Virus record (IMG/VR): IMGVR_UViG_3300025030_000068
Coordinates: 1 to 64,000 of that record
Direction: 5' to 3' (one strand)
Length of the DNA stretch: 64,000 nucleotides
From: a virus
The notes under the pieces are model-generated. The model was given only the letters and a program-made list of their open reading frames with translations. It was not told where the DNA came from and made no database searches. Made by a program: the position numbers and the translations under genes. Each line of letters starts with the position of its first letter. Positions within the stretch are counted from its first letter, which is position 1. Shown here in pieces: positions 1-20,667 of this stretch.

Positions 1-467
1 CCCCCCAGCCGATCGATCGCCTTCACTATCGGCTTGCCGCCGTTGTCTCTGGTCTGCATGACCTTCTCCCGGAACTCCTCGAACGGCAGCGCCGTGATCT
101 TGCCCATGAAGCGGGGGTCGTCATAATGTGCGAGGTAGAACTTGCTGGCGGCGTCCATGCTCTCAAACGCCAGCAGCGCCTTTTCCTCGTCCGGGCTCGT
201 GAAGTCCGGCGCCTTCATCTGCGACACGATATAGACCTCCTGTGCCTCCGGGTGTTGGCCAATGAAGCAGTCGTAGTGGTCGCCGTCGCTGCCGAGCGTG
301 CCGCAAATGTAGCCGTATGGACGGCTCATGCGGGTCATCCCCTCGGTGCCGTCGTGGTCGTTTTTCCACTCCCGGATCGATCCAGCTCTGTTCTCGACAG
401 AGATTTCAAGGCCGCGAAAGTTGAGGCGACCATGCAGCTTTCTGGCAGATTTACGAAGGAGGATCAT
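1..467 (-). CDS. Partial ORF (runs off the window): polyvalent-protein-type inorganic pyrophosphatase-like (InPase) domain, putative internal virion protein
   Basis: Not in the ORF track. Manual translation from ATG 467 (ATGA overlap with the upstream stop): MILLRKSARKLHGRLNFRGLEISVENRAGSIREW...MSRPYGYICGTLGSDGDHYDCFIG...PDEEKALLAF...FYLAHY...EEFREKV...PIVKA. This matches the GLxISxEN / YGYIxGTxGxDGDHxDxF / DExK pattern of InPase domains. Confidence 0.75.
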   Translation of the reverse strand, partial: MILLRKSARKLHGRLNFRGLEISVENRAGSIREWKNDHDGTEGMTRMSRPYGYICGTLGSDGDHYDCFIGQHPEAQEVYIVSQMKAPDFTSPDEEKALLAFESMDAASKFYLAHYDDPRFMGKITALPFEEFREKVMQTRDNGGKPIVKAIDRLG

Positions 468-1024
468 TGCCCTCCGTCTCCTCTGTCCTTCGGTGTTGTG
501 CAAGGGCTGCCGAGTGCCGGATTGCGGTGAGGGCACGCTCTTGCGCACTGGTCGCATTGCTTGATGTGCGCTCGCAGGTCGGCCTCCAGCGTGGTCACGC
601 GGCGGGTGGTATCGACCCGGATCTCTGCGATCTGGGAGTTTGTAGTGTTGACCTTTTCGTGCAGCGCCGCTGTCGCTTGATTCATCATTTCGCTCATGCC
701 CTTGATCGCTCCCTGCAGATCACGGACGGCAAGATTAAAGGAAGCGGTGACGGTATTTTGCGCCTCTCGTAGCTCGTCAATAGCTCTGGTCGTCGCTGTT
801 TCCAGTCGCTGGATGGCCGCGTCGGAGCGTTCGAGGTTTTGGGTGATGGCGGTGTCTGCTCTGACGATGTTCTTTTCAATCGCTGCCTGTTTCGTGGTGA
901 CCAGTGCCAGCACCGCTTCTTTAAGGGCTGCGGCCAGAAACGCGACGATGGCGAGGAGTCCCAAGGTGAAGACCCAGGCCAGTGCCGGGTTGGTGTCGAA
1001 GACGGCTTTGAGTGCGGCGATCAT
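464..1024 (-). CDS. Membrane-anchored coiled-coil protein with Cys-rich C-terminus
   Basis: One N-terminal TM segment (LAWVFTLGLLAIVAFLAAAL), long heptad region, CxxCxxxC tail; translationally coupled to neighbours. Confidence 0.6.
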   Translation of the reverse strand: MIAALKAVFDTNPALAWVFTLGLLAIVAFLAAALKEAVLALVTTKQAAIEKNIVRADTAITQNLERSDAAIQRLETATTRAIDELREAQNTVTASFNLAVRDLQGAIKGMSEMMNQATAALHEKVNTTNSQIAEIRVDTTRRVTTLEADLRAHIKQCDQCARACPHRNPALGSPCTTPKDRGDGGQ

Positions 1025-1299
1025 TACTTTCCTCCTGTACGTGGTTTGATCAAAAAGAGGCGCAAGGCCAGTTCGGTATCTTCGATGGGGTTGTCCCTAT
1101 TGTCGCCCGGCCACCGCTGGCCAGAGGTCTTGTCTGGGTGCGGCAGGTGCCCGCTGTAGTCCGCCCGGACCGGGTTCTCGATGGCGATATCCCAATCGGT
1201 GTCGAGGGTGTCGTCTTCGAGCATCTCTTCCATGCCGTCGACGTCATTCGGGCCAGCCTTGTGCCCCTCGCAGGTTTCAAAGATCGTCCGTTTCTTCAT
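1024..1299 (-). CDS. Small acidic hypothetical protein
   Basis: 91-aa ORF overlapping the stop/start of both neighbours. Confidence 0.55.
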   Translation of the reverse strand: MKKRTIFETCEGHKAGPNDVDGMEEMLEDDTLDTDWDIAIENPVRADYSGHLPHPDKTSGQRWPGDNRDNPIEDTELALRLFLIKPRTGGK

Positions 1300-3221
1300 G
1301 CCGCTACCCTCTTTTCTGCAACGTATTTTTTGAGCCGACGCATGGTCGCCGCGTCACTCAGGTCAAGGCGTCCGCTCCAGTGGGTACCGAGGAGGAGTCC
1401 CTTGCCGAGTTCCTGCCCACCGTTCTTCATGTCGGCAATGTCCCACATCGTCTTCGGATCGTTCGAGGCGAGGATACGGCTGATGTGGCTGTGCATCTGT
1501 GCCGATATCTGGTTGACGTGGGTGGTGCGGTTCCCGGCGCGGACGTCCCGTGGTGCCCGCTTGAGTTCGTCGAGTCGATCCTTGATGCCCTCCTTGATGT
1601 TGCTCCAGTTCTTCGGCAAAAACCCGAAGCGTGCCCATGTGTAGCCGCCGACGTCGCAGTTGGCCGACACGTCAACGTGGGAGACGCCGAGGGCTTTATA
1701 GACGCCGAACGAGGCCCGGAACAGTCCCTTGGCACCGCCGTTGCCGGTGTCTCCTGCCGAAAAATAAGAGTGTGAGACCACGAGTTTGTCGTTCGTCTTG
1801 GTAAAATAACGGCTGATGCTGGTCCCGTCGTCTCCGGCGAACGAAACGTAAATGCTGTCATGTCCACTTGCTGCCATTTTGATCCCAAACTTGGTGGTGC
1901 CGCCGAAGTCGGCGATCATCGTCTTCGCCATTTGCAGCGCGGTCTCCTTGTCGACTCCCATGACGCTGTGAACAGCGGTGTCCGTGAGGGTGTCGACAAC
2001 CTCGGTGCGTCGGATGTTCTTGCCGATCTCCGCCTTGGCCTTAAACGTGTCCTCCCGCTCCAGCTTTGCCATAAGGCGAGCGGCTTCCCGGCGGATGCGG
2101 ACCATGTCTGCTGTCTGCACGTTTTGCCGAGCCCGCTGCGTTTCCGGCGTGTTCGGTACCCATGTGCCGGCTTGGTAGTTGCGGGCTTGCGTCTGCAACG
2201 TCGTGGGCTGGTCAAGATAACGGTTGGCGAGACGGTGGACTTCCGGATTCGGCCAAGGAGTGACGCGATCGTTGCTTCGTGTCCCTTCTCTGGTAACGGT
2301 CGTGCCGTCCAGTGGCACATTCGGACGCGGCACGAAGCCGAGTTGCGCTTCGGTCAGGTTCAGCGGGTTCGCCGAGTGCGGGACCGGATTGACCGGGAGG
2401 CGGCTCACAGGTGCCCGTGGTGCTCTGGGAGCACGGGGCGGTGCGGCTGAGGCAGATCGCGCCGGTTGCAGGCCCGTGTCGTTGGCGAGGTGGCGAATGT
2501 CGGTGATCTGGTCCGCCGGCAGTGTCGGTGCCCCTTCGGCCTGATGTCCCGGTATCGGCTGCCCGGCGATGTTGTAGCCGAAGTGCCGCAGCAGGGCTGC
2601 CCGGTAGTTGTCGGCTGCCGTGGTGTAGCCGTTGCTGCGGGTTGTCTGGATCGAGAGCAGCGCCTGCACCGGATCGGGGGCCGAGGTGGCGGCGGCGTGC
2701 AGCAGGTGGATCTTTCGCTGCGCCGAGAGCAGCGCCGAGTTCTGCATGTTGGAGGCGGTCAGCGTCGGCGGTACCGGGGCGGAGCCGAGGATGAGTTCGG
2801 GTTGATGGTTGGCAACAGCAGACTGCCCGGCGGCGCGGAGTGCCTGCTTGTAGTCATCGACGCGCTGGTAGTTGGTCCGGGTCCGTGACGTCGAGAAGTT
2901 GGCGATGCCATCGTAGTCGCCGCGTTCAGCCATGAGGCGCAACTGATTAACCCGCCGGGTGCAGCCGAGGTTAGACTCGCTGGTCTCCGGGAAGCGTGGC
3001 TGCGAGACCCGGCGCATGGCTGCGGCCATTGCGACCTTGGCCTGCTCCCGCGTGATCGATCCTTCTGTCGGGCCGGCCTGTGCTGATCCGACGCGGACCC
3101 AGCGGTGGACCTGATGGCCATTGACGTCGTTGACCATCCGCAGGACGTAGCCGGGGTGGTAGGCGCTGATCTGCGACTTAAAGAGGTCGTCTGGTGCCGG
3201 TCTGCGGCGGAGGAGGTACAT
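1296..3221 (-). CDS. Putative internal virion/polyvalent protein with C-terminal GNAT-like acetyltransferase domain
   Basis: N-terminal DDLFKS; two internal helical repeats; C-terminal GDTGNGGAKGLF...VDVSANCDVGGYTWARFGF resembles the GNAT acetyl-CoA loop and C-terminal motif. Confidence 0.6.
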   Translation of the reverse strand: MYLLRRRPAPDDLFKSQISAYHPGYVLRMVNDVNGHQVHRWVRVGSAQAGPTEGSITREQAKVAMAAAMRRVSQPRFPETSESNLGCTRRVNQLRLMAERGDYDGIANFSTSRTRTNYQRVDDYKQALRAAGQSAVANHQPELILGSAPVPPTLTASNMQNSALLSAQRKIHLLHAAATSAPDPVQALLSIQTTRSNGYTTAADNYRAALLRHFGYNIAGQPIPGHQAEGAPTLPADQITDIRHLANDTGLQPARSASAAPPRAPRAPRAPVSRLPVNPVPHSANPLNLTEAQLGFVPRPNVPLDGTTVTREGTRSNDRVTPWPNPEVHRLANRYLDQPTTLQTQARNYQAGTWVPNTPETQRARQNVQTADMVRIRREAARLMAKLEREDTFKAKAEIGKNIRRTEVVDTLTDTAVHSVMGVDKETALQMAKTMIADFGGTTKFGIKMAASGHDSIYVSFAGDDGTSISRYFTKTNDKLVVSHSYFSAGDTGNGGAKGLFRASFGVYKALGVSHVDVSANCDVGGYTWARFGFLPKNWSNIKEGIKDRLDELKRAPRDVRAGNRTTHVNQISAQMHSHISRILASNDPKTMWDIADMKNGGQELGKGLLLGTHWSGRLDLSDAATMRRLKKYVAEKRVAA

Positions 3222-3247
3222 GGGGGCTCCCTTGTGATGATAGGCGA

Positions 3248-3276
3248 AGTTTAACTTGTGTCGTTCCCTATATCAA
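3248..3276 (-). promoter_or_regulatory. sigma70-like promoter with overlapping operator
   Basis: Minus strand TTGATA-17 nt-TAAACT; the -35 box is embedded in TTGATATAGGGAAC. Confidence 0.65.
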
Positions 3277-3301
3277 TTTTTTTGCCTTATCGGTTAAACT
3301 A

Positions 3302-3340
3302 AAACCACCAGTTAAGGGCGGTTTCTTTTCTTTAGTGAAG
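3302..3340 (+). promoter_or_regulatory. Phage-specific promoter-like repeat, copy 1
   Basis: AAACCACCAGTTAAGGGCGGTTTCTTTTCTTTAGTGAAG, 29 nt upstream of the methylase ATG. Confidence 0.7.
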
Positions 3341-3369
3341 CGGTCACTTAACCGAAAAAGGGAGACTTT

Positions 3370-4566
3370 ATGCGCTACGGGAGCGTTTGTTCAGGAATAG
3401 AAGCGGCTACAGCGGCATGGCACCCGCTCGAATGGAAGCCAGTATTTTTCAGCGAGATCGAGCCGTTTCCCTGCGCCGTTCTTGCTCACCATTATCCGCA
3501 TGTGCCGAATCTTGGCGACATGACAAAATTCAAGGAGTGGCCGGATGCAATTATCGATGTTCTCGTTGGAGGAACCCCCTGTCAATCCTATTCAGTCGCA
3601 GGACTCAGAGCGGGACTGGGTGACCAGCGTGGCAACCTCATGCTTACCTATGTGGCGATTGCTCGGAAATATCGCCCCAAGTGGGTGGTCTGGGAGAACG
3701 TCCCCGGCGTCCTTTCAAGTAATGAGGGACGAGACTTTGGAAGCCTTCTGGGGCTGCTCACCGGACAGCACGTTGTCTGCCCCCCTACCGGATGGCAAAA
3801 CAGCGGAGTCGTGCCGGGGATCAAGGGGGCTTACGGCATCGCATGGAGAATCCTTGACGCTCAGTATTTCGGAGTGGCCCAAAGACGCCGCCGTGTGTTC
3901 GTTGTCGGATATCTTGGAGACTGGCGACGTGCCGCAGCGGTTCTTTTTGAGCGAGACAGCTTGTGCGGGAATTCTGCGCCGCGCAGAGAAAAGAGGGAAG
4001 AAGTTGCCGGAACTCTTGGCGCTCGCACTTCAGGGGGTGGCTTCCCTGGATCAGATGAAGCCATGAGCGGGTATGTGCAACCTGTGCATACGACAGGCGC
4101 CGGATTCTGGCAGGAGGGTTTCGGAACGCTCCGGGCACGGGAACAGGATAGCCACGAAAATCTGATCTGCATGTCCACCGGCCAAGCCGGAGCCGAGATA
4201 GGGATAGGGATAGGGACAACCCTCAACTGCAACCACGAAGCGCCCGTCGTATGCTTCGAGTCTCGTTTTGCGCGAAACGGTCGCGGTGCTCCAAGTGAGA
4301 TTTGTCCTCCTTTGAAGGCGGAGAATGGAGGGACGGGAAAGGGTGACGGTGCTCCGCTTGTCGCCTCAGCAGCGATGCAGGTACGCCGATTAATGCCCGT
4401 CGAGTGTGAAAGATTGCAGGGATTTCCCGACCACTTCACAAACATCCCCTGGCGCAAGAAGCCGGAGTCACCGGACGGGCCGCGATACAAGGCGTTGGGC
4501 AATAGTATGGCGGTGCCGTGTATGCGCTGGATCGGGGAGAGGATAGCATTGGTTGATTCGCTATAA
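3370..4566 (+). CDS. DNA (cytosine-5)-methyltransferase
   Basis: Motif I (SVCSGIEA), IV (GGTPCQSYS), VI (WENVPG), VIII (QRRRRVFVVG), IX (RRLMPVECERLQGFPD), X (YKALGNS). Confidence 0.95.
   Translation: MRYGSVCSGIEAATAAWHPLEWKPVFFSEIEPFPCAVLAHHYPHVPNLGDMTKFKEWPDAIIDVLVGGTPCQSYSVAGLRAGLGDQRGNLMLTYVAIARKYRPKWVVWENVPGVLSSNEGRDFGSLLGLLTGQHVVCPPTGWQNSGVVPGIKGAYGIAWRILDAQYFGVAQRRRRVFVVGYLGDWRRAAAVLFERDSLCGNSAPRREKREEVAGTLGARTSGGGFPGSDEAMSGYVQPVHTTGAGFWQEGFGTLRAREQDSHENLICMSTGQAGAEIGIGIGTTLNCNHEAPVVCFESRFARNGRGAPSEICPPLKAENGGTGKGDGAPLVASAAMQVRRLMPVECERLQGFPDHFTNIPWRKKPESPDGPRYKALGNSMAVPCMRWIGERIALVDSL
3545..4066 (+). CDS. Nested +1-frame ORF inside the C5-MTase (M.EcoHK31I beta-like second polypeptide)
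   Basis: Own RBS (AAGGAG 3532-3537, 7 nt before ATG); C-terminus CSLSDILETGDVPQRFFLSETACAGILRRAEKRGKKLP resembles the LxDILE...YxLS segment of C5-MTases. Confidence 0.65.
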   Translation: MQLSMFSLEEPPVNPIQSQDSERDWVTSVATSCLPMWRLLGNIAPSGWSGRTSPASFQVMRDETLEAFWGCSPDSTLSAPLPDGKTAESCRGSRGLTASHGESLTLSISEWPKDAAVCSLSDILETGDVPQRFFLSETACAGILRRAEKRGKKLPELLALALQGVASLDQMKP

Positions 4567-4570
4567 AATA

Positions 4571-4602
4571 AAGGCCGGGGCATTTCGCCTCGGCCTTTTT
4601 TT
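4571..4602. terminator. Bidirectional intrinsic terminator
   Basis: AAGGCCGGGGC-ATTTC-GCCTCGGCCTTTTTTT between convergent genes. Confidence 0.85.
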
Positions 4603-4603
4603 G

Positions 4604-6763
4604 TTACTTGTCGTCGGCCAGTTCGATATCGGCAAGCTGAACGACCGACGTCGGCTGGATCTTCATGTTGACCAAATGTCGGACCAAAACGCGGCCACCA
4701 TCGGGATCTTCGATAAGGACCATTCTCGCCTCGGCATCGCCCTTGTCGACGACCTCTTTAAACTTGACTACCATCCCCTCCTTTAGGTGGCTCTTTGGTT
4801 CAAGCGATCGCCGTGTCTCTCTTTCGTGCCGATCAAGCACCTCTTCAAGGTCATCTTGCAGGGGTTTCGGCCATGAAGCGTGTGCTTTAAACTTTCGGAT
4901 TTTCTCAATGGTTTTGAGGTAGGCTTTCGGTGTTGCGTAGTCGGGATGTGACACGTCAATCCCAAGCCCCCCACGGCCCTTCTTGTCGTGGTGCTCGTAG
5001 ACATCATGTAGCTGCTGAACCAGTTTGGCGTGCCGGTTGTCGTCATGTTCCTTGACCGCAGTCCCGTCCTTGCGGGTGTAAGCCTTGATATGACTCTTCA
5101 ACACCTCTTCCGCAATCCCCGTGCTCTTCTTCAGATCATCGATCTCTTTCATCTCGTTCCCCTTGGCAATGATAAGGTTCTTTCCTCTGCTGGTATTTAC
5201 CCACGTCCCCTTGCCATTGTCCAGCGACTTCGCCAGCTCACCGCAGGCCGTCAGCACTTGCCGACCGGCGATTCTCCGCAGCAGCAGGCCGGGGCCGACG
5301 ATCTTCACCGCTCCCTGCGACTTGATCATGTCGAGGTGGTCGGTCAGAGCCCGCAGGAACTCCCGGAACTCGTCGATGTTGCTCTTGCCCTTGAGGCGCT
5401 TGATGGCCGCGTCGTGGACCGGCTTGATCGCCTCATGGCTCCAGTTGCGTCCGGTCGGGTGCGCGATCTCCTTGCGCTTCATGGTGGCGGCGATATCGGC
5501 GGCGCTCTGGGGCTCGACGATGTTGCCGAGGCCGTACTTGCGGTTGAGCACCTCCTGCTCGACCGGCGTCAGGGTGCCGACCAGGCCGGCGATGGCGGCC
5601 TCCCGCTCTTGGATGCGGCGGAGTTGATGCTGCATGTCCGGGTCGAAGCTGTCGATCGCCGATTGATTCTCCCACCACGGCACCGCGTTGCCGCCGTCGG
5701 CCAGTTCGTCGGCGCCGTCCTCGTCCATGTACTGCATGCGCTCCTGGTGCGCCTTGCGCTCCTTCAGGGCAGCGACGACGGCATTGCGGCCTTCCTTGGT
5801 CGCGACCTTGAAGATGCGGCTGTCTTCGGCGTCACCTGTCAGGTAGTCCTCAAAATTGTCGATATCCACCTGTGATGCCGAGGAGAGTTCTCGCCGTAGT
5901 GCCAGCGTCGCGCCCATCATGTAGTCGCTGACCAGATCGTTGTACTCGAAGTTGTCGTCGCTCATGTAGACGCCATTGACGCGGCGGACATTCCCCGCCT
6001 GGATATAGTTGGACCCGGCCAGACCAGTGACGGTGCGACTCATCATCGACTGGAACTTGTCATTGGTGATGATCTCGCCTTCTGTCAACACGGTGGCAGC
6101 ACGGGCAGCCTCTGCTCGGCGGTTGTGCTCGGCGGCGGTCAGGCGGTTGGAGGTGCCGCCGGTATTCTCGTATTTGGTGTTCTTGACCCGCTTGGCTTCC
6201 CCTTCGGTCAGGATCGCTGAGGCGTGGACCGCGTGCATCGGGGCGGCGGCAGTCTTGCCGTCTGCGGCTCCCTGCACGACGTACATATTGCGGCCCAGCG
6301 GGCGGACGATGGTCCCCTTGCGCTGCCGGGTGATCCCTTCGTCCTTGACGTGGTAGCGGACCTTGTCGCCAGTTTCGAATTTTCCGGTACCGGGGGCGGC
6401 AGTGACAGCCTCATGTGCCGGGATGAAGACCTTGGCGGTCTTGGCCGCGTCCTTCAGCGTCTGGTGCTCGATGGCGAACTCTTTGCCGATCTGCGTTTTG
6501 CCGCTGGAGTGGGTCACCGTGACGTGGTAGTGGGTGGCGTCCTTGCCGGTCACCTTCAGCGCAAACTCTTTGCCGAGGCGCGACGGCATGCCTTCCGGGG
6601 TGGCGATGATCATCTCGGCGCCGGGGCTGATCTGCGTCTTGCTGCGCAGGTGGTCGCGTTTCGGCGTTTTTGCCTTCCAGCCGATCACCGAGACCTTGCC
6701 GCTGCGATTGTTGCGTGTGAAGGCGATATGGCCGCGATTGGTCTTAGGGGCGGTGTTCGGCAT
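4604..6763 (-). CDS. Multidomain putative virion protein containing a sigma70-like (region 2 + region 4) domain, KOW/SH3-like domains and an HVKxYTR tag
   Basis: YNDLVSDYMMGATLAL (cf. region 2.2 xDLxQEGxxGLxxA) and LTPVEQEVLNRKYGLG..EPQSAADIA...SHEAIKPVHDAAIKRLK (cf. region 4 LTxRExxVLxLRFGL..EPxTLxEIG...SRERVRQIExxALxKLR); also LKSHIKAYTRKDGTAVKEHDDNR. Confidence 0.7.
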   Translation of the reverse strand: MPNTAPKTNRGHIAFTRNNRSGKVSVIGWKAKTPKRDHLRSKTQISPGAEMIIATPEGMPSRLGKEFALKVTGKDATHYHVTVTHSSGKTQIGKEFAIEHQTLKDAAKTAKVFIPAHEAVTAAPGTGKFETGDKVRYHVKDEGITRQRKGTIVRPLGRNMYVVQGAADGKTAAAPMHAVHASAILTEGEAKRVKNTKYENTGGTSNRLTAAEHNRRAEAARAATVLTEGEIITNDKFQSMMSRTVTGLAGSNYIQAGNVRRVNGVYMSDDNFEYNDLVSDYMMGATLALRRELSSASQVDIDNFEDYLTGDAEDSRIFKVATKEGRNAVVAALKERKAHQERMQYMDEDGADELADGGNAVPWWENQSAIDSFDPDMQHQLRRIQEREAAIAGLVGTLTPVEQEVLNRKYGLGNIVEPQSAADIAATMKRKEIAHPTGRNWSHEAIKPVHDAAIKRLKGKSNIDEFREFLRALTDHLDMIKSQGAVKIVGPGLLLRRIAGRQVLTACGELAKSLDNGKGTWVNTSRGKNLIIAKGNEMKEIDDLKKSTGIAEEVLKSHIKAYTRKDGTAVKEHDDNRHAKLVQQLHDVYEHHDKKGRGGLGIDVSHPDYATPKAYLKTIEKIRKFKAHASWPKPLQDDLEEVLDRHERETRRSLEPKSHLKEGMVVKFKEVVDKGDAEARMVLIEDPDGGRVLVRHLVNMKIQPTSVVQLADIELADDK

Positions 6764-6794
6764 GGCGGAAACTCCTTGTGTTGATAATGGATGG

Positions 6795-6823
6795 ATTGTA
6801 TCTTTCCTTGTTTCCTATATCAA
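6795..6823 (-). promoter_or_regulatory. sigma70-like promoter/operator for the sigma-domain gene
   Basis: Minus strand TTGATA-TAGGAAACAAGGAAAGA(17)-TACAAT. Confidence 0.7.
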
Positions 6824-6834
6824 ATTATTTGCCC

Positions 6835-6873
6835 AAACCACCAGTTAAGGCGGGTTTCTTTTCTCTAGTGAAG
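6835..6873 (+). promoter_or_regulatory. Phage-specific promoter-like repeat, copy 2
   Basis: AAACCACCAGTTAAGGCGGGTTTCTTTTCTCTAGTGAAG followed by hairpins GAAGG-GACGAT-CCTTC and GCGCC-AGCG-GGCGC. Confidence 0.75.
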
Positions 6874-7008
6874 GGACGATCCTTCCACTTGACGAAGCGC
6901 CAGCGGGCGCACGGAACCGCCGGGTGGCCTGCCGGGGTTAAATCTCACGATCTCTTTTCCCGTGGTGCCGCGTCTGTCGCGGTATCGAAACTGAACTAGG
7001 GGGCTGCC

Positions 7009-11301: not shown

Positions 11302-11633
11302 TCGCCGGGCATCGAGCATATCTGTCAGGCCCCATGACGAATATTTCCGATTTCAACCGCCCACAGTTCTTCCTGGCTGAGTCGCTCCTCCTCGCCTCCG
11401 GTGCCGCCTCGGTCTTCAACCCGGCCCGGCATCCCGACGGCCTGACGTGGGAGGAGTATATGGCGCTGGATATCGCCGGTATGCACGATTGCACTGCCTT
11501 CGTTCGCCTGCCGGGGTGGGAGGCGTCCCGTGGCGCCCGGATCGAGAACGCTCTGGCTGCCGATCGGGGCCTGCTGGTCCTCGACTTGCCTCCTTGTGTC
11601 CTGAGTGTTCCCTTTATCAAAACCACCAGTTAG
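11298..11633 (+). CDS. DUF4406-family (nucleoside deoxyribosyltransferase-like fold) protein
   Basis: YLSGPMT..DFNRPQF...VFNPA...WEEYM...LPGWEASRGARIE. Confidence 0.8.
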   Translation: MIAGHRAYLSGPMTNISDFNRPQFFLAESLLLASGAASVFNPARHPDGLTWEEYMALDIAGMHDCTAFVRLPGWEASRGARIENALAADRGLLVLDLPPCVLSVPFIKTTS

Positions 11634-11658
11634 TGCGGGTTTCTTTTCTCTATTGAAG
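11620..11658 (+). promoter_or_regulatory. Phage-specific promoter-like repeat, copy 3 (abutting operator 11607-11620)
   Basis: GTGTTCCCTTTATCA-AAACCACCAGTTAGTGCGGGTTTCTTTTCTCTATTGAAG. Confidence 0.75.
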
Positions 11659-11709
11659 AGGCTGATCTCTCCCACTAACTGATGCGCCAGCAGGCGCTTG
11701 GAGGTTCCC

Positions 11710-12141
11710 ATGTTTAATGCCAAAGCGTTCTATCTTCGCCAACTCCGTTCAACCGTCGACGCGCTGGCTCTGGCCAAGGAGGAGGCTGCCGTCGAGATCG
11801 CCAAAGACCCGATCCACTTCATGAGCTGGGGCGGCAACGTCTCGTTCGTCGATGCCGGTGGCCACAAGTGTAGCTGCAACGTCGTCGTGCAGGCGTTCAA
11901 GGCCCGCATCGCTATCTCCCTTCTGGACGCCGAGGCTAATGGCAATCTCATTGAGTCCGCCAAGCTCCTGCGCGAGCGGATGATCGACACGCAGCTGCGC
12001 TTCTCCGGCGGCACGTCAACCAGCGCCTTCTCGAATGCCGTGGATATGCTGGAGGCGGATGCTCGCCGCGACCTGCTTTGCAACTTTGGACCGCTGACTG
12101 CCGAGGCGATTCGTTCGCTTGAAGAGGAGGTCGCCCCATGA
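11710..12141 (+). CDS. Hypothetical protein
   Basis: RBS GGAGG before ATG 11710. Confidence 0.6.
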   Translation: MFNAKAFYLRQLRSTVDALALAKEEAAVEIAKDPIHFMSWGGNVSFVDAGGHKCSCNVVVQAFKARIAISLLDAEANGNLIESAKLLRERMIDTQLRFSGGTSTSAFSNAVDMLEADARRDLLCNFGPLTAEAIRSLEEEVAP

Positions 12142-12452: not shown

Positions 12453-12466
12453 TTCTGGAGGAAGTT

Positions 12467-13437: not shown

Positions 13438-13739
13438 GTAAGCCATCTGGCGAGTTCGCTGTCTCTCCCCTGTCTCGCGAGGCATTTGTTGAGACCTATG
13501 GCGACAATACCGTCTTCACCGAGGACTGGACTGGTCCCCGCTTCCGCTACGGCTACCGCAATCGTCCGTTCGCCCTGTGCCACCAACCGCGCGGCTGGAT
13601 AATCGGTGGAATCGATAGCGACTTCCGCGACCCCGTGGCCGGCGTTCGGCATGGATGTGTCGACTACCCTTTTGAGCTGACCGCTGACGAGGTCTATTCG
13701 TTCGAGCTGGTCTTTCTTGGCGAGGTGTCCATCCCGTAG
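13434..13739 (+). CDS. Stand-alone DarA C-terminal-like domain protein
   Basis: FRYGYRNRPFALCHQPRG...RHGCVDYPFELTADEVYSFELV matches the DarA_C pattern (YxxxxRPxxxGxxPxG...YGxxxYxxxLTxxExxxYEL). Confidence 0.6.
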   Translation: MSKPSGEFAVSPLSREAFVETYGDNTVFTEDWTGPRFRYGYRNRPFALCHQPRGWIIGGIDSDFRDPVAGVRHGCVDYPFELTADEVYSFELVFLGEVSIP

Positions 13740-13866
13740 TTTTTTCCTGTGTTTGCTCTCCTTTTGTCACCACCTTTTGTGATATCATCGCGCCCGGCCA
13801 CTTGTGCCGGGCCTTCCCTCTCAGTGCCCCTGCGGCCTCTTCCTTTCCCCTGCCAAGGAGTTTCCC

Positions 13867-14649
13867 ATGTCTGCCTGCCCGTCCTGCCAAGCTACCGTCA
13901 AGAAAGGTTCCAGTTTTTGCCGCTACTGTGGCCACCAGCTCCCGGTGGTCGTCGGCGTGTCCTATCCCTACGGCATCCGGTTCCCGTCAGCTTTCGGCGA
14001 TGCTGCTGTCGTTGCTCTGGCTCGCACCGCTCCAAGGTATTCTCTCGACGTTTCCCTTGCTGGAGTATTCCATGTTGCCCTCTACGACCGCCTGACGCTT
14101 CCGCAGCTGGCCGATCTCCACCGGGCGGCGTTCCTTGCCTTGCCTCGCGGCTCCATCATGCATACCGTCGACGGCAGGACGTTTTTCGGCGGTTCCTCGT
14201 TCTGGGCCTGCATGTCCCGGCGGCTGAATGAGGAGGGAGTCTTCGGCGGCGAGGTCGAGCACTGGTCCGCTCGCTGCCATTCCTTTTTCGGCTGCATCTC
14301 GTCACAGAAGCGGCAGCATGCGATGTATCACCGCGAGGGCTGGGAGGTCTTCTATCCGGGCCGGCATGGGCGCTTCGCCGACTCCGTGAGCGGTGGCGAG
14401 GCGAACCCTTGCCCGGAGGTAGATGCGGGTCGCCACCAGTTCTTCTACCCGGACCGGGCGAAGATTCAGGCCGAGGTGCTGCAGCTGGCGAAGCGCTCTG
14501 GCTGCAACCGGTGCCCGATGTTCTCCCCGGCGTATCTGGCGCAGCAGATGAAGAAGATCCCGCTCGTGCTGGAGTTCGGCGTGACTCCGGATTGCGGCTG
14601 GTTCCGCTGTCAGCTGCATGGCGATGCGGCGTGGTTGCGGGTTTATTGA
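13867..14649 (+). CDS. Zinc-ribbon domain protein
   Basis: MSACPSCQATVKKGSSFCRYCG; RBS AAGGAG. Confidence 0.65.
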   Translation: MSACPSCQATVKKGSSFCRYCGHQLPVVVGVSYPYGIRFPSAFGDAAVVALARTAPRYSLDVSLAGVFHVALYDRLTLPQLADLHRAAFLALPRGSIMHTVDGRTFFGGSSFWACMSRRLNEEGVFGGEVEHWSARCHSFFGCISSQKRQHAMYHREGWEVFYPGRHGRFADSVSGGEANPCPEVDAGRHQFFYPDRAKIQAEVLQLAKRSGCNRCPMFSPAYLAQQMKKIPLVLEFGVTPDCGWFRCQLHGDAAWLRVY

Positions 14650-14665
14650 CTAAGGAGATTGTGCG

Positions 14666-14923
14666 ATGAAACTTGGTATTGGTTCTCTTGAGACTTGTAA
14701 CGAGACGGGGATTGTGACCTTCGATTGTGGCTGCCGGTTCAATCCTGAAACGCATGAGGTTTGGCCGTCGTCATCGTGTCGACCCTCTCCACGGCAAGAG
14801 TCCGTGGAGAGGCACGAGGATGGGTCTTCTAAGTATGTTCGCGAGGCTCGCTCTGCTCGGCACTCGATGGATGTGAGCTATTATTTTTGGCGTGCTCAAG
14901 AGATCATTGATGCTTCAGGTTAA
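14666..14923 (+). CDS. Hypothetical protein
   Basis: RBS TAAGGAG. Confidence 0.55.
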   Translation: MKLGIGSLETCNETGIVTFDCGCRFNPETHEVWPSSSCRPSPRQESVERHEDGSSKYVREARSARHSMDVSYYFWRAQEIIDASG

Positions 14924-14961
14924 AACCACCAGTTAACGCGGGTTTCTTTTCTCTATTGAAG
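14923..14961 (+). promoter_or_regulatory. Phage-specific promoter-like repeat, copy 4
   Basis: AAACCACCAGTTAACGCGGGTTTCTTTTCTCTATTGAAG plus hairpins GAAGG-GATGAT-CCTTC and GCCCC-AGCG-GGGGC. Confidence 0.75.
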
Positions 14962-15009
14962 GGATGATCCTTCCGAATTCAGATGCCCCAGCGGGGGCCG
15001 GAGGTTGCT

Positions 15010-15240
15010 ATGTTGACGACGGAGAAGATTTGCACCGGCCAGTTTCGTGTTTGCTGGAACGGCGCGGCTACCGAATGGACGATCATTAACGGCTGTGCCG
15101 GTGTCAGTGGGCGCGATTCTGCCAACCACTACGGCGTGCTGAAGGATGGGAGTACTTCTCCTCGCTGGATCGGTTCTCTGATTGCCTGCAAGAAATCGCT
15201 GGCGTTAACGTTTCGAAACGCGGACAAGGTGAAGCCTTGA
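15010..15240 (+). CDS. Hypothetical protein
   Basis: RBS GGAGG before ATG 15010. Confidence 0.55.
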   Translation: MLTTEKICTGQFRVCWNGAATEWTIINGCAGVSGRDSANHYGVLKDGSTSPRWIGSLIACKKSLALTFRNADKVKP

Positions 15241-15566
15241 AAGGTAACACCTACGCTGTCGTCATCCGAATTGAGACAATCAGGAAGCGCCTCACCGACG
15301 GTGGGGCGCTAAACTGCGGCGATATTGCCGCTCTCTTCGACGTCTCGCTGAAGACAGCCCAGCGCGACATTGAGTTCCTTCGCTCGTTTTACGGCCTCAC
15401 CATTGACTATGACGCGAGTCGTCGCGCACTGTACTTGGCTGCTCCTGCCCCACCTTATCCGCCTCCGCTGGACAGCGATGTATCTTCTTCTGTCCGTGGT
15501 CGGTATCCGAAAAAGCCGGAGCGCAATGCTCCGGCCTTTTTTGCGTTTTTTACTTATTTTTCGTAA
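15237..15566 (+). CDS. Winged-HTH protein resembling the N-terminus of WYL/PafB regulators, lacking the WYL domain
   Basis: IAALFDVSLKTAQRDIEFLRSFYGLTIDYDASRRALYL. Confidence 0.6.
   Translation: MKGNTYAVVIRIETIRKRLTDGGALNCGDIAALFDVSLKTAQRDIEFLRSFYGLTIDYDASRRALYLAAPAPPYPPPLDSDVSSSVRGRYPKKPERNAPAFFAFFTYFS
15510..15542. terminator. Bidirectional intrinsic terminator
   Basis: AAAAAGCCGGAGC-GCAAT-GCTCCGGCCTTTTTT at the convergence of operons. Confidence 0.8.
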
Positions 15567-15756
15567 GGTGTTCCTTGTACTCCGTCCTTACTGCCAAAAT
15601 GCCCTTTGGATTTTCTCCCTTTCTTTGTGCCTTCAACCATAGGCCGATAAGTGTGTCGATATTGTAAATCACGCCGACCGCTTTTTTCCCCGCCAGCATT
15701 TTCGCCACTACTCGGTGATGCCCATCGATAACCATCGGCCTCTGAATCTTTATCAT
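15550..15756 (-). pseudogene. Out-of-frame C-terminal half of the ParB/Srx-like domain of the MuF protein
   Basis: PMVIDGHHRVVAKMLAG continues IPPVLVE... of the main ORF in the +1 frame. Confidence 0.65.
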
Positions 15757-17710
15757 CCTTCAACCCTTCTACGAGAACCGGCGGGATAGCGGTGCCCTTC
15801 CTTTCTTCCGCAGCCAATTCCTGAATCTTCTTGTCACTCCCCGGCATAACCCCTTTTTTATCGAACTCCTTATAATCCTCCCAGTCGTCCCACTCTGAAG
15901 GATCGACGTCTTTAAGAGGGATATGGTCGTGGATGATCCTCTTTGGCTGAATCTTGGAACTGAAATGTTCGTCAAGCATTTCCGCTACGTATTTATCCAG
16001 AAATGCGGTTGCCTTCAATCGCTTTGCGTCTGCATGCATCTGCTCTGTGTTGATCATTTTATGTGGTGGAAGTTTTGTCGGCTGCGCGGGTGGGACATAA
16101 TGCGTCTCCCCCAGCACCGTCCGGGGCTCGCCGCCTCTGATCTCCGCCTCGATCCGCTTCCGGCTGGCGGCTGCCGTCTCTTTCGGCTTCCGGGGCTTGC
16201 TGGCGGCCTTCTTCCCTTCCTGTGCAGCATCCTTCCCCGGCTCGACCTTCTTCTTCGCCACCGTCCGCAGCAGCGCCATCGGGTGCCCGATGCGGCCCTT
16301 CGGCTTCTTGCCGTCCCCGGTGGCTGACTTCCTCTTCCGCAGCAGCGCGACGAGTGCGTGGTGGTGACCTGCGGGCGCTACCGGCGTCTTCTTGCTGCGG
16401 CTGTCGTCGTGTTCGTTGACGACGGTGCCGTCCTTGCGCGTGTAGGTTTTGACGTGGGACTTGGCGATCGTCGCATTGCCGCGATTCTTCTTCTGCAGGT
16501 ACCACGGCTCGTGCCCGGAAAAAGGAAACGGGCCAAGGCAAGCACAGAACGGGTGGATCAGCCCGGCCACCGCCTTAAGCGTCTCCTGCCCATCCTCACG
16601 GCCTCCCGGCACCGCCTTGCCGCCCTTCACCGGGTGCGCCTTGCGACCGATGTTCATGCCGTTGCCGATCAGCTCCGCCAGGTCGAAGATGCGCGGCGTG
16701 CCGTCCTCCTCCAGGTATAGGTGTTTGCATTGGGCGCAGGCCGTCGGCAGCGGCATCTTGTAGACGAGTTGCTGCGGCCCGTGCTGTTCCAGTATCTGCA
16801 TCGCCTGCCCCTGCTTCTGGGCGTCGGTGATCTCGAAGAAGGCGACCCGGTCCCAGTCGCGGCTCTTGTCGTCCATCGCGTGATACAGCTCCGAGCTGAA
16901 TCCCTGCCAGGTGTTGACCTGCCGCTCCGGGATGGCGATGCCAAGCGCCTCCTTCTTCTCCCGGTCCAGCACCTTCGCCTGCAGCCGCTGTTCGTGGAAG
17001 TCGATCGCCATGTTGCGGATGATGGTGCGGTTGCGGTCGGCGATGATCTCTCCAGCCAGCTTCGCCGTGTCGTCACCGAGCGCCGTGATGTAGTTGGCGG
17101 TCTGCTGCTCGGCGATGGCGATCGCGTGGATATCCGGCGTCAGCAGCGGCATGGTGGCTGCCAGCTTCATGATCTCGGCAAAACTGCCGCCCTGCTCGAC
17201 CGCCTGCCATGCCCGGCCAAAGGTGAAGGCGTTGTGGATGATGCGGCCTTCGGTCCCGACCGCCAGCGCGAAGTCCTGCGGGGTGACGTCCGGCGCGATC
17301 CAGCCTTCCGCCTGCCAGCGTGTGAGGAGGTCTTGCGGCGGCGTGTAGTCTCCCTGTATCTGCGCGGCGATGAATCCGAAGCGGTCCCGGACTACCTGCA
17401 GCAGATCGGCGATCTCCTCTTTCGTCAGGGGACGGGTTGGGCCGATGGACTTGATCAGCTCCGCTCCCTGTAGCCGACGCTCGACCGCTCGCTTGATATC
17501 GATGGCGGCCAGCCCGTACTCATGCCGGAACTGTCGCAGCAGTTCGCGAGTCGGCGCGTCCCGTGGCTCCTTCGGGCCGTCGCAGCTACAGCCGGCGGCC
17601 TTGAGTAGCGCGTCCGCGACTTCGGCCTCGATCCCCTGTGCGGAGACGAGGCCGAGGACGGCTTTCTGGAGCTGGTCGTTGGTCAGGTTGTGGCTGATTT
17701 TAAGTTTCAT
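15554..17710 (-). CDS. MuF/SPP1 gp7-like head morphogenesis protein with C-terminal extension (ParB/Srx-like domain split by a frameshift)
   Basis: In the head module downstream of portal; RDWDRVA, ACAQCKHLYL and IHPFCAC motifs; then IAKSHVKTYTRKDGTVVNEHDDSR and a lower-GC cargo. Confidence 0.75.
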   Translation of the reverse strand: MKLKISHNLTNDQLQKAVLGLVSAQGIEAEVADALLKAAGCSCDGPKEPRDAPTRELLRQFRHEYGLAAIDIKRAVERRLQGAELIKSIGPTRPLTKEEIADLLQVVRDRFGFIAAQIQGDYTPPQDLLTRWQAEGWIAPDVTPQDFALAVGTEGRIIHNAFTFGRAWQAVEQGGSFAEIMKLAATMPLLTPDIHAIAIAEQQTANYITALGDDTAKLAGEIIADRNRTIIRNMAIDFHEQRLQAKVLDREKKEALGIAIPERQVNTWQGFSSELYHAMDDKSRDWDRVAFFEITDAQKQGQAMQILEQHGPQQLVYKMPLPTACAQCKHLYLEEDGTPRIFDLAELIGNGMNIGRKAHPVKGGKAVPGGREDGQETLKAVAGLIHPFCACLGPFPFSGHEPWYLQKKNRGNATIAKSHVKTYTRKDGTVVNEHDDSRSKKTPVAPAGHHHALVALLRKRKSATGDGKKPKGRIGHPMALLRTVAKKKVEPGKDAAQEGKKAASKPRKPKETAAASRKRIEAEIRGGEPRTVLGETHYVPPAQPTKLPPHKMINTEQMHADAKRLKATAFLDKYVAEMLDEHFSSKIQPKRIIHDHIPLKDVDPSEWDDWEDYKEFDKKGVMPGSDKKIQELAAEERKGTAIPPVLVEGLKDDKDSEADGYRWASPSSGENAGGEKSGRRDLQYRHTYRPMVEGTKKGRKSKGHFGSKDGVQGTPYEK

Positions 17711-18910
17711 TTAGCGGCTCAATTTGTAATGTCGGACGTGATCCTTGATGTTCTTCTCTGGCACCTTCGACAGGTCCATGCCGCCGTGGTCTCTGGCTGT
17801 GTCTCCAAGGTGACGGCCCATGCGGCTATCGAGGAAGTCGCGAGCCTTTTCGTGTGAATCGAAGTGCCCGTTCTTGACGAGGTGGTCAGCTGCGGCGGAA
17901 TAGCTTTCAGCGGCCTTGGCCTCCACCTTGCGGATAGTGGACTCCGGGGCTCGGTAGATGTCTCCGTCCTTGCCGACTTCTTCTTCAGCGTGGTGATCCT
18001 GCGCGATACCGTGGAAACCGTTGCCTTCGTTGGCGGTCTCGGTGCGGGGGGCTGCGGAGGTCTTAGCGGGCGTCTTCTTGGTCGTCTTTTTCTCTTTCTT
18101 GCCAAGATCATGTGCTGCGCCGAGTGCCGCCTCTATGCTTTTGACGTGGCCTTCCTTAAAATCGTGGCGGTCCAGTCCACGTTCTTCAAACGTGTCATGG
18201 ACAAGGAGGTGTTTCTTTGCCACCGGGAGCAGATGGTCGGTGCTCGGAGACTTCCCGCCTCCGGCTTTGTATGCGGCATGCAGGGCTTCTTTGACCCGGC
18301 TCACGTGGAGGTCTTTGAAGTCATCCCGATCGCTCTTCTTTTCCTTGAGGCTGTCGATACCGAGGTGAGCCTTGGAGGCAGAAGCAATAGCTCTCTGTCT
18401 GCTGTCGTCGTGTTCCTTGACGGTCACGCTGGTGCCGCTGGCCGTGGTGCGCTGGTAGGTCTTGACGTGGGCTTTTTCAAAGGATCTCCGACTCATAACA
18501 GCACTTCGAATTTCGCCAGTTGTTCGTCTCGATCTCTGTTCTTCGAGCCAGTCTTCGTGGTCTATCCGAGCCTGATCTGACACCGGCTTTTTCGCTGTTC
18601 GCCCTTCTTTTTTATTCAGCGCATCCGCGAACTGCTTTGCCTCCTCATTATTTTTAAACCTGTGGCCGGTTGAGCTTCCTGATCCTCCTTCTCCGACAAA
18701 CCATGCGCTGCCGTTTGGCGACTTAAAGGCTTCGTAGGGTTCTTTTGTCCGGCTGTCGTCATGCTCCGCCACCGTCGCCACTGCTCCCGACTTGGTGCGG
18801 CGGGTGTACGCCTTGACGTGGGACTTCTTGAGCAGCGCCCGGAGTTCATCTTCGGTCTCTGCTGCCGCTTTCCGTAACTCGTCGCTGCTGATGCGTGCCT
18901 TGTCTGCCAT
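17711..18910 (-). CDS. Polyprotein-like putative internal virion protein: two HVKxYxR tags, two DUF6900-like repeats and a C-terminal RDFLDSRxGRH domain
   Basis: Start at ATG 18910; LKKSHVKAYTRRTKSG..EHDDSR; FEKAHVKTYQRTTASG..EHDDSR; HLGIDSLKEKKSDRDDFKDLHVSRVKEALHAAYKAG and a second diverged copy. Confidence 0.7.
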   Translation of the reverse strand: MADKARISSDELRKAAAETEDELRALLKKSHVKAYTRRTKSGAVATVAEHDDSRTKEPYEAFKSPNGSAWFVGEGGSGSSTGHRFKNNEEAKQFADALNKKEGRTAKKPVSDQARIDHEDWLEEQRSRRTTGEIRSAVMSRRSFEKAHVKTYQRTTASGTSVTVKEHDDSRQRAIASASKAHLGIDSLKEKKSDRDDFKDLHVSRVKEALHAAYKAGGGKSPSTDHLLPVAKKHLLVHDTFEERGLDRHDFKEGHVKSIEAALGAAHDLGKKEKKTTKKTPAKTSAAPRTETANEGNGFHGIAQDHHAEEEVGKDGDIYRAPESTIRKVEAKAAESYSAAADHLVKNGHFDSHEKARDFLDSRMGRHLGDTARDHGGMDLSKVPEKNIKDHVRHYKLSR

Positions 18911-18912
18911 GT

Positions 18913-20667
18913 CTATTCTCCCACTTCGATGGTGATAAATTTCACGTCGCGAGGCTGCGACTTTTTCTTGAATTTCTTGGCCGGGATCGGTCCGATCATG
19001 TTCCCGGCGGCGTCGATTGGTAGCGACTTTTGGACATCCTCGTCTTGGCTGTCGTCCTGCTGGTCGTCGCCCGGATCGCCTTGCGGCTGACCCAGCATCT
19101 GGAAGACTGAGAGATAATTGGTAATCGGGACATCGCTCGGATAATTCCACGGGTTTGAATCATCCAGAGGATCGCCAATCGGTGCCTTGCCCTCCTCCAT
19201 CCGCGCCTCGTTCTTTGTCATCCATTTACTGACACGAGCGGTCCTTAAGTCTACTGTTAACTTCTCGTCGTCCTTCTCAATGCCGGTGACGATCAGCTTT
19301 AGGTCGTTGTAGCGGGGTTTGATGATCGCGTCCGTGAGCCAGCTGGTCATGTCCTCGATGGACGGTATCAGGCTCAACTCCTTGTTGAACTCGATCTCGT
19401 CGATCGGGCTGGCGTTACCGAGGCTGTTTCCTCCGGCACCGGAGTCCATCTGGAGGTTTAGTGTGCTCGGATGTGCGCCGTAGGCGGCTGCCTTCAGCAT
19501 GATCAGCAGCCGGACGAATTCGTTGAACAGCATATCCTTCGGCGTGTCGCGCAGCTTGTGCGCCTCGATCTTGAAGCCGTCAACGCTGCCGCTGGGGATG
19601 ACCGGCAGGCGCCAGTAATTGCCGGCGCCGTGCGTGTCGCCGATCAGCATCTGCTTGAACGCCTGCAACCCTTCCTTGTCGAAGTCGCCGGCCACCGACA
19701 GGATCGCCTCCGGGTAGTTGGTCTTGAACATCTCCCGGTTGAAGCTCCATGCAGCCATCAAAGTAGCTGTAATTTCAAGGGAAACCTCTAAACGAGAAAT
19801 TCCGTAACCAAATGTGTTGATTTCGTCGCTGGGGTTGGACAGGTGGATGCTGAGCTCGTCGGAGGTGAAGGCGTCAACGAGGAGGCCGTCGACGATCTGG
19901 ACGTAGCTGGCCTTGGTCAGGTCGAAGCCGGTTGCCGCTGACATCTGGTAGGCGGTGGCGGCATTGACGGTCTTCTTGCCGCCGTTCTTCTTGGCGTTCT
20001 TGGCGGCCCACTCCTTCATCGCCTCATCGACGTTCTTGACCGTCTCGCCCGGCAGCGCGTAGAAAGCGGCGTAGCCTTTGCCGTCGGCTCGCTTCATCCG
20101 GCGGATACACTTGCGATCTATGATCAGCTCGGTCTTGGTCAGGGAGGCGACCAGTTCCTTAATGCGGCTGTGGGGACGGACGCGGTTTGGATAGAACTGA
20201 GTGTACTTCTCCGGACACGGGTCATCGATCAGCACTTCCATTTCACGGCAGCGGTCGTCGATCTCCTTGCTCCCCTTGAACGTCGGATCGTCGTGGCGGA
20301 TGTGAACCACCTTGTACCCGACCTTCGCCGCGTCGTAGGTATGCTTCCAGATGCGTTTCATCTGGTCGACTCTGGCGCGTATCAGGATGGCATCGACGAA
20401 CGACTGCCGGGATGCCTGGTAGAGGGTGCGGAAGCCCGGCGTTCCCTGCGGCTTCTCCCTGGCGCCGTAGAGGGACATATTTTGCAGCATGTATTTGGAG
20501 AAGAGGGTGCCGCGTTTCTCCTCCTCTTCAGCTGCAATCTTGCGGGATTCTTCTGCGACCGCCTTGTTCAGCGAGTCAATGCTCCGCGAAGAGACCAGAA
20601 GTCCCGCCGGAGTCTCCATCATGCCGCCCGCGCGTGGTAGCGCTTTTTTCAGATCGTCTTTGTCCAT
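18913..20667 (-). CDS. Portal protein
   Basis: 584 aa between terminase and MuF; FGYGISRLE, LRDTPKDMLF, MTKNEARMEEGKAPI motifs of portal families. Confidence 0.85.
   Translation of the reverse strand: MDKDDLKKALPRAGGMMETPAGLLVSSRSIDSLNKAVAEESRKIAAEEEEKRGTLFSKYMLQNMSLYGAREKPQGTPGFRTLYQASRQSFVDAILIRARVDQMKRIWKHTYDAAKVGYKVVHIRHDDPTFKGSKEIDDRCREMEVLIDDPCPEKYTQFYPNRVRPHSRIKELVASLTKTELIIDRKCIRRMKRADGKGYAAFYALPGETVKNVDEAMKEWAAKNAKKNGGKKTVNAATAYQMSAATGFDLTKASYVQIVDGLLVDAFTSDELSIHLSNPSDEINTFGYGISRLEVSLEITATLMAAWSFNREMFKTNYPEAILSVAGDFDKEGLQAFKQMLIGDTHGAGNYWRLPVIPSGSVDGFKIEAHKLRDTPKDMLFNEFVRLLIMLKAAAYGAHPSTLNLQMDSGAGGNSLGNASPIDEIEFNKELSLIPSIEDMTSWLTDAIIKPRYNDLKLIVTGIEKDDEKLTVDLRTARVSKWMTKNEARMEEGKAPIGDPLDDSNPWNYPSDVPITNYLSVFQMLGQPQGDPGDDQQDDSQDEDVQKSLPIDAAGNMIGPIPAKKFKKKSQPRDVKFITIEVGE

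Follow-up and report, generated by a model that had tools for sequence, protein, structure and literature searches.

The question raised by this locus is why one short peptide recurs in several proteins of a phage head-gene cluster. The window, that is, the whole stretch of 64,000 nucleotides (nt) analysed here, is the first 64 kb of a 89,928-bp contig (57.8% guanine plus cytosine, GC) of an uncultured phage, IMG/VR record IMGVR_UViG_3300025030_000068. A preliminary description of the window had reported the peptide four times in three proteins and interpreted it as the tag of a modular head-loading system. As a junction module, the tag spans about 30 residues and combines two halves, a site of the form h-x-K|S/A (h, hydrophobic residue; |, putative cut) followed by an autonomous β-hairpin. 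That it is a real, reusable module placed in front of swappable cargo, with modular exchange of that cargo, is well supported. On balance, we favour the reading that K|S/A would be cut by the SPO1-type prohead protease of the phage and that the hairpin would serve as a handle on the released head cargo.

A reusable junction module

A six-frame regular-expression scan of the whole genome agrees with the reported count, finding exactly four copies of h-x-K-(S/A)-HVKxYxR...VxEHDDxR, all on the minus strand and in three proteins of the head cluster:

18749-18835, minus strand: tag copy 1, ALLKKS + HVKAYTRR..VAEHDDSR, after the 29-residue helical leader of a 399-residue post-portal protein
18398-18484, minus strand: tag copy 2, RSFEKA + HVKTYQRT..VKEHDDSR, in the same protein, between a small domain and two DUF6900 repeats
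16397-16471, minus strand: tag copy 3, ATIAKS + HVKTYTRKDGTVVNEHDDSR, at the end of the conserved, possibly MuF-like 410-residue domain of protein P0002
5033-5107, minus strand: tag copy 4, EEVLKS + HIKAYTRKDGTAVKEHDDNR, in protein P0001, between a sigma-like body and the C-terminal cargo

Counted from the first His codon to the final Arg codon, the cores occupy 18749-18820, 18398-18469, 16397-16456 and 5033-5092. Each copy follows a hydrophobic-x-K-S/A tetrapeptide (LKKS, FEKA, IAKS and VLKS, respectively), as had been described, and the four share 11 invariant positions. Nor did a fifth copy turn up anywhere in the genome when a profile of 225 tags was run with permissive cut-offs. At the DNA level, the four copies share 71% identity and show synonymous differences, among them Ser TCC versus AGT, so selection acts on the tag peptide; on the same grounds, a regulatory DNA repeat was rejected.

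The hairpin half consists of HVKxYTR, a turn of four or eight residues and xVxEH(D/E)DxR, after which a flexible linker and the cargo domain follow. For 40 aligned sequences, AlphaFold predicts a helix, the K-S junction and then a β-hairpin with strands at 15-21 and 27-33 (predicted local distance difference test, pLDDT, 76-89). In the model of the full 718-residue P0002, pLDDT falls below 50 at the disordered junction (residues 414-417), and the hairpin (422-432) is an isolated unit with disorder on either side. The alternate residues His, Lys, Tyr and Arg line one face of strand 1, and a conserved E-H-D-D cluster follows strand 2.

A search profile built from the four copies was scored against 1.84 billion representative proteins; 476 protein clusters matched at E<=1e-3, and 77 reached E<=1e-10. 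The matching proteins are 72-3447 residues long and contain 1-5 tags each; these matches led us to reject a chance origin. Nearly all are metagenomic. One is a prophage protein (P0221) of Oryzomonas rubra, and the hosts of the relatives are, as in that case, probably Geobacter-like; a scan of species genomes with narrow patterns returned a single locus, in a Nitrospirales metagenome-assembled genome. The peptide is conserved in AT-rich and GC-rich lineages alike. In tblastn, the tag matched none of 50,697 cultured-phage records, isolated tags matched nothing in Pfam or PHROG at E up to 10, no NCBIfam model covers them, ESM Atlas held no usable match, and a literature search with typical tag strings found no publication. 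The tag is widespread and has no Pfam, PHROG or NCBIfam model; the themes that it touches, namely protease-processed head cargo, polyvalent proteins and polymorphic-toxin junctions, are known.

The anatomy of the module was examined in 230 tags from 161 proteins, 229 of them with enough upstream residues. The residue before the putative cut (P1) is Lys in 229/229, P1' is Ser in 137, Ala in 88 and Thr in 4, and P3 is without exception hydrophobic (Leu, Met, Phe, Ile or Val); the K-S/A columns belonged to the search profile, and their constancy among the matches is partly built in. In 158 of the 161 proteins, the last tag is followed by 50 or more residues (median 232), tag-to-tag spacing never falls below 77 residues, and the first tag lies no more than 40 residues from the N-terminus in 96 proteins. 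Such N-terminal tags take two forms, one with a minimal leader such as MLLLKS and one with a helical leader of 20-35 residues, usually containing an upstream (D/E)-L-x-K-A motif and resembling scaffold repeats. At 13 of 15 IMG/VR loci, homologues of the portal, MuF-like protein, protease, capsid protein, P0001 or P0005 (a further protein of the window, described below) lie within 10 kb of the tag.

Variant hairpins also occur. A weak one, HIAFTRNNRSGKVSVI, with a score of 2.6 and no EHDD half, lies at the N-terminus of P0001 (6674-6730, minus strand) and resembles a HHVGYTRTNARGTVSTI motif in orthologues of the post-portal protein. Another without the EHDD half reads HHVGYTRTNARGTVSTIAAKNPR; such variants are found in proteins P0105, P0094 and P0214, which include orthologues of the post-portal protein. 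Other short β-rich N-terminal motifs, RGGKYWIDKKG and KWITVHPNG..PVLV, follow an M-x-L-L-x-K-A/S start in cargo-like proteins at L011:9557-12473, L012:8987-10708 and L019:4228-8343 (ORF61 of Morganella phage Mecenats66). Related phages have different short β motifs at this position, which suggests that the principle is general and not bound to a single motif.

Cargo and its exchange

The tagged proteins and a related untagged one are organized as follows:

17711-18910, minus strand: 399-residue protein directly after the portal, with leader, tag, small domain, tag, two DUF6900 repeats and C-terminal domain
15554-17710, minus strand: P0002, 718-residue post-portal minor head protein, with a conserved domain (1-410) holding a Cys/His cluster, the tag, a Lys-rich linker, a helix plus hairpin (513-539) and a variable C-terminal module
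15554-16093, minus strand: variable C-terminal module of P0002, GC 0.48-0.50
4604-6763, minus strand: P0001, 719-residue tagged protein, with N-terminal variant hairpin, unannotated domain, sigma-like region, tag and variable C-terminal module
4604-5032, minus strand: variable C-terminal module of P0001, low GC
1296-3221, minus strand: P0005, 641-residue protein, starting MYLLRRRPAPDDLFKS

The true start of the 399-residue protein is the Met at 18910, and the protein is identical to database protein P0066. Accessory genes on the plus strand sit between the two post-portal tagged genes and the gene of P0001.

In large relatives, tags stand between InPase, ddrB-ParB, ART-PolyVal, Zeta toxin, SAM lyase, SNF2 and DUF5661 domains. 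The combinations seen in tag-bearing relatives are InPase with Zeta, SAM lyase and DUF5661; InPase with ART and SAM lyase; ddrB-ParB; and SNF2. Tag-bearing relatives hold at least two unrelated effector domains in one polypeptide among virion genes, the hallmark of polyvalent proteins. The cargo segments of the window had no Pfam match, the modules behind the tags being unannotated save for the two DUF6900 repeats, and NCBIfam gave nothing useful on the window proteins.

The lower GC content that the preliminary description had attributed to the cargo is seen in windowed GC for all three regions: about 0.52 at 4501-4950 versus 0.59-0.68 upstream, 0.48-0.50 at 15451-16050 versus 0.64-0.66, and 0.50 at 18451-18750 versus 0.57-0.60. 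It had also been proposed that cargo is swapped among orthologues with breakpoints at the tag, and this held in four of five cases, in which the DNA homology among close relatives breaks at the tag or a K-S site; the swap of the C-terminal cargo of P0002 departs from it. Two orthologues of P0001 match it at about 90% identity as far as the last residue of the tag, beyond which the sequences are unrelated, the DNA homology to the orthologue at locus L014 stopping at nt 5034, the tag end. One P0001 orthologue switches inside the turn of the tag, between the short-turn and long-turn versions. Among relatives with 90% identical portals, only the leader of the post-portal gene is kept, and homology stops at about 18812, the start of tag 1; orthologues of this gene are mosaics around a conserved island that ends in a tag. 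In the P0002 orthologue of a relative, a HAD-like domain is inserted between IAKSH and LLKSH, the homology blocks meeting at 16454-16462 in the K-S-H codons, and a ParB-like domain is inserted in the linker. The fourth break, at 3168, lies just after LFKS of P0005. In the L014 orthologue, the DDLFKS leader that it shares with P0005 precedes a true tag and about 800 more residues ending at LLRKS, and P0005 is therefore read as a deletion derivative joining two K-S sites. The module thus marks sites of cargo gain, loss and exchange.

Breakpoints at or inside the tag, including the switch between short and long turns, are what would be expected if the tag were kept mainly as a DNA-level joint for cassette exchange, with no function as a protein. 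We consider this very unlikely, since the four copies share 71% DNA identity with synonymous differences, the peptide is conserved across AT-rich and GC-rich lineages, and some indels join at bare K-S sites with few shared bases. A DNA recombination hotspot was rejected on the divergence and synonymous changes of the copies. The earlier proposal that cargo is exchanged by recombination at the tag-coding DNA fails on the same point: DNA homology is not the driver.

The body of P0001 (5120-6073, minus strand) resembles a sigma-70 region 2/4 protein; none of the sigma models in Pfam matched it. Its layout recurs in L012 (8987-10708), which is distant and AT-rich, as an N-terminal β motif, a sigma-like body, a tag and a C-terminal module. 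Because this relative repeats the layout of P0001, a sigma-like factor may be conserved head cargo.

The gene of P0002 lies two genes after the portal gene. Its family comprises short forms of about 400-420 residues without the tag and extended forms of more than 500 residues, in which the tag is found at residues 417-454 in 7 of 11 (by regular expression) and differing cargo follows. P0002 is 90-92% identical to P0006, P0007 and P0008, after which the C-termini differ (PBECR3 or none), and further homologues end in LPD3, DUF5661, ParB-like or ART domains. The family thus shows the constant N-terminal domain and variable C-terminal extension of MuF polymorphic toxins. A toxin domain was not recognized in P0002 itself, whose residues 540-718 have no Pfam match and a low-confidence fold. 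Cys325, Cys328, His386, Cys389 and Cys391 are invariant in 57 homologues, and this Cys/His cluster (residues 325-391) suggests a zinc site. The MuF label given in the preliminary description found no support in profile databases, as P0002 and 56 homologues had no MuF match (PF04233) in Pfam, PHROG or NCBIfam. A fold search of BFVD with P0002 returned weak rows named 'MuF-like minor capsid protein' and 'head morphogenesis domain' (E 1.5e-3 and above, TM ~0.1-0.25), and Foldseek of the model against PDB gave zero matches. The gene position and Cys/His cluster of P0002 suggest a MuF protein, and we call it MuF-like provisionally. Its helix plus hairpin reads RKRIEAEIRGGEPRTVLGETHYV (16094-16174, minus strand; pLDDT 76-84) and lies directly before the C-terminal cargo swap point and the GC drop.

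A candidate site of the prohead protease

The genes that bear on cleavage lie partly outside the window, as had been anticipated for the protease gene, which we located in the remainder of the genome:

genome 83491-84387, outside the window: head maturation (prohead) protease, phrog_1028 E 2.9e-46
genome 82758-83471, outside the window: acidic scaffold, 237 residues
genome 81288-82727, outside the window: capsid protein, phrog_752 E 5.7e-53
18913-20667, minus strand: portal, PF04860 at its cut-off, phrog_12 E 1.8e-21, h-x-K-S/A motifs near both ends
window part 1-557, minus strand, running over the circular junction: InPase-type polyvalent-protein open reading frame (ORF), starting MILLRKS, with bare h-x-K-S/A motifs at domain borders and no hairpin
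23468-24823, minus strand: large terminase

The profile matches of the protease, capsid protein and portal place these genes in an SPO1-type prohead protease and head module. In tblastn comparisons, SPO1-like phages and Morganella phage Mecenats66 have portals and capsid proteins with 23-29% identity to the present ones, and blastn of the region against phage records gave zero matches. The InPase-type ORF matches polyvalent-protein PHROGs. The contig ends have about 31 nt in common (window 1-40 and the genome end), indicating a circular assembly, and the InPase plus DUF5661-like ORF is unbroken across the junction; the tandem GGKPIVKAIDRL at the joined ends is an overlap artefact.

Outside the tags, the preliminary description had pointed to further K(S/A) motifs, and these are present in the InPase ORF (MILLRKS, PIVKA), the 641-residue P0005 (DDLFKS) and the portal (DDLKKA, DSLNKA, DVQKS). 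It had also proposed K|S as a maturation site and a comparison of K(S/A) frequencies. We counted [LIVMFAT]-x-K-[SA] and took the expectation from protein composition. The enrichment is strong in the scaffold (13 motifs versus 1.7 expected) and the protease (7 versus 1.1), and the InPase ORF has 5 versus 1.3 expected (6 were counted, one being a duplicate from the assembly overlap). It is weak in the tagged proteins (5-7 versus 3.2-3.8) and not significant in the portal (5 versus 3.0); besides the scaffold, protease and InPase ORF, no gene stood out in the scan. The motifs at the portal ends keep their position in portals that are about 24% identical. The capsid protein starts MNIQSFDQMLKS|A, and its N-terminus has the motif in every lineage examined.

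The pattern extends beyond this genome. Related loci show the same motif enrichment, including one whose protease is 28% identical; SPO1 has 12 motifs in its scaffold versus 1.6 expected and a capsid N-terminus reading ALNKA|L; and Mecenats66 has the motif in both the scaffold and the capsid N-terminus. It is also seen in Staphylococcus phage 812 and the A511-like Listeria phage LMTA-34. The Lys23-Ser24 of the LMTA-34 capsid protein agrees with the statement of the preliminary description that the capsid protein of A511/K-like myoviruses is cut by the prohead protease at a Lys-Ser bond. Because the motif marks scaffold, capsid protein and portal, the four residues before every hairpin match the signal of the substrates of this protease type. 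The proposed role of K|S in maturation thus gains from the enrichment here, in relatives, in SPO1, in 812 and in the A511-like phage, with cleavage itself a prediction. Judged from these sequence patterns, the prohead protease probably cleaves at the K|S/A of the tag, a prediction that we make with some confidence.

Two further explanations concern the cut. The K-S-H order resembles the Ser/His layout of some self-cleaving modules and could allow the Ser that follows Lys to undergo an N-to-O acyl shift, the next His acting as base. We rejected such self-cleavage and regard it as exceedingly improbable: Ala, which offers no nucleophile, is P1' in 88 of the 229 tags (38%), and the same K-S/A motif crowds scaffolds that are free of hairpins. 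Alternatively, the hairpin could be an exosite or presentation element that docks on the prohead protease for efficient cutting of K|S/A between folded domains, with no later role. The constant hairpin directly adjoins the site, which itself lies in a disordered stretch between helix and hairpin, as such a role would have it. Yet many candidate sites in the scaffold, protease, capsid protein and InPase protein have no hairpin, and lineages whose hairpins are nearly the same have proteases of only about 28% identity, which makes an exosite quite unlikely.

One side observation concerns the protease itself. Its C-terminal part has GPLMLQNLD, a near copy of GPLMLENLD of the capsid N-terminal arm; the protease segment may be a co-assembly mimic of the capsid arm.

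Proposed head loading and known systems

We postulate the following route for the favoured reading, cutting by the prohead protease with the hairpin left on the cargo. The precursors, namely the MuF-like protein with its C-terminal cargo, the product of the gene after the portal and the sigma-like protein, would be built into the prohead, as would the giant polyvalent proteins of relatives. The prohead protease would then cut each K|S/A, and every cargo module would be set free in the head interior, bearing the hairpin at the N-terminus thus created. Until ejection, this hairpin would act as a common handle by which cargo is held or organized, whether in the head, on DNA or on some conserved component of the head. 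Packaging of the tagged proteins is what we infer from the setting of their genes; the hairpin as a retained handle, to capsid or DNA, is speculative. A bolder version, which we offer tentatively and hold to be doubtful, makes the hairpin a portable address tag that stays on the cargo: 25 residues would suffice for any domain, once released, to be retained in the head and to leave with the DNA. Such a tag would constitute a second capsid-cargo signal besides the removable T4 type, and the polyvalent proteins of a large clade of uncultured phages would be organized around it.

Several points weigh against cutting followed by retention in the head. The phage is uncultured, and the case for cleavage and packaging is drawn from sequence and structural models. 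The scaffold and the InPase protein have candidate cut sites without a hairpin; because the scaffold sites lack it, the hairpin is not needed for cleavage, and cutting does not in itself define its role. Loci L010 and L020 have no recognizable head genes within 10 kb of the tag. One of the five breakpoints lies away from the tag: for the C-terminal cargo of P0002, the swap point is nt 16094, some 100 codons downstream, where the break directly follows the helix plus hairpin (513-539) and coincides with the GC drop. The constancy of K-S/A is, as mentioned, partly a product of the search profile. Finally, the hairpin is far better conserved than the portal, capsid protein and protease, which are 23-29% identical in distant loci, and such conservation fits a universal ligand, DNA or metal, equally well as a head partner.

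This last point, together with the His/Lys/Tyr/Arg face of strand 1 and the conserved E-H-D-D cluster, speaks for a hairpin that acts in the infected cell, as a nucleic-acid- or metal-binding unit taking the delivered enzyme to DNA, RNA or a host machine, with K-S/A merely separating modules. Nucleases, a sigma-like protein and DNA-modifying enzymes are among the cargo, in keeping with such a unit. However, the cargo is too diverse for one target (pyrophosphatase, ADP-ribosyltransferase, Zeta kinase, SAM lyase), and the tag is associated with the vicinity of head genes and with a protease-type site, so that we consider action in the cell unlikely.

A route by protease cutting and a retained handle has partial parallels in known systems. 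The internal proteins of phage T4 (IPI-III, Alt) have capsid targeting sequences and are cut by the prohead protease gp21 at (L/I)-x-E. They are likewise head-internal, ejected proteins with a short signal beside a protease consensus site that also fills the scaffold. In contrast, the T4 targeting peptide precedes the cut and is removed, whereas the hairpin described here follows the putative cut and would stay on the cargo. The present tag is also repeated inside polyproteins, has no sequence similarity to the T4 signal and adjoins K|S/A rather than x-E. Ejection proteins of phiKZ and SPN3US are cut by their prohead proteases (PMC5694885, PMC7411985).

Polyvalent proteins have been proposed to be packaged and delivered with the DNA and to be processed by embedded zincin metallopeptidases (Iyer, Burroughs, Anand, de Souza and Aravind 2017, PMC5512222). 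They resemble the tagged relatives in being multi-domain, in lying among late or head genes and in their InPase, ddrB-ParB, ART-PolyVal, Zeta, SAM lyase and SNF2 domains; a term search of that paper found no such junction hairpin. Unlike them, the proteins scanned here yielded no embedded peptidase, and their borders bear a head-protease motif plus hairpin. MuF polymorphic toxins are similar in that a post-portal minor head protein exists as a short form and as a C-terminally extended, variable form, as described by Jamet et al. 2017 (PMC5576092), in which term searches returned no junction, linker or cleavage motif. They differ in that P0002 has no match to the MuF hidden Markov model and the tag is also found on many non-MuF-like proteins.

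Among polymorphic toxins, VENN in CdiA is a pre-toxin junction motif. Pre-toxin junctions share with the tag a short conserved motif at the border between constant and exchangeable parts (Zhang et al. 2012, PMC3482391). Their sequence is different, delivery is by secretion rather than by a phage head, and the tag can recur along a single protein, joined each time to the site of a viral protease. The head maturation of SPO1/Twort/A511-type phages (Herelleviridae) is similar in its distantly related portal, protease and capsid protein, its scaffold crowded with x-K-S and its capsid N-terminus with K|S or K|A. In contrast to the present phage, cultured phages of this type have no copy of the hairpin tag in the tblastn search of the 50,697 phage records.

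Polyvalent and MuF-fused proteins are thought to be the first-strike enzymes of the phage. To our knowledge, how such proteins are loaded into heads and separated into working parts is largely undescribed outside T4, P1 and giant phages. The module of cut site plus hairpin provides a sequence rule for module borders and for new cargo domains, most domains behind the tag being unannotated. It predicts which bonds are cut by the head protease and offers a small candidate tag for loading proteins into capsids. Cargo exchange between near-identical phages proceeds cassette by cassette at these borders.

Apart from the tag, the window contains an intergenic repeat of about 90 nt at 14923-15012, 11620-11712 and 6835-6915, of which several copies are also found at loci L014, L004 and L003 (76-91% identity).

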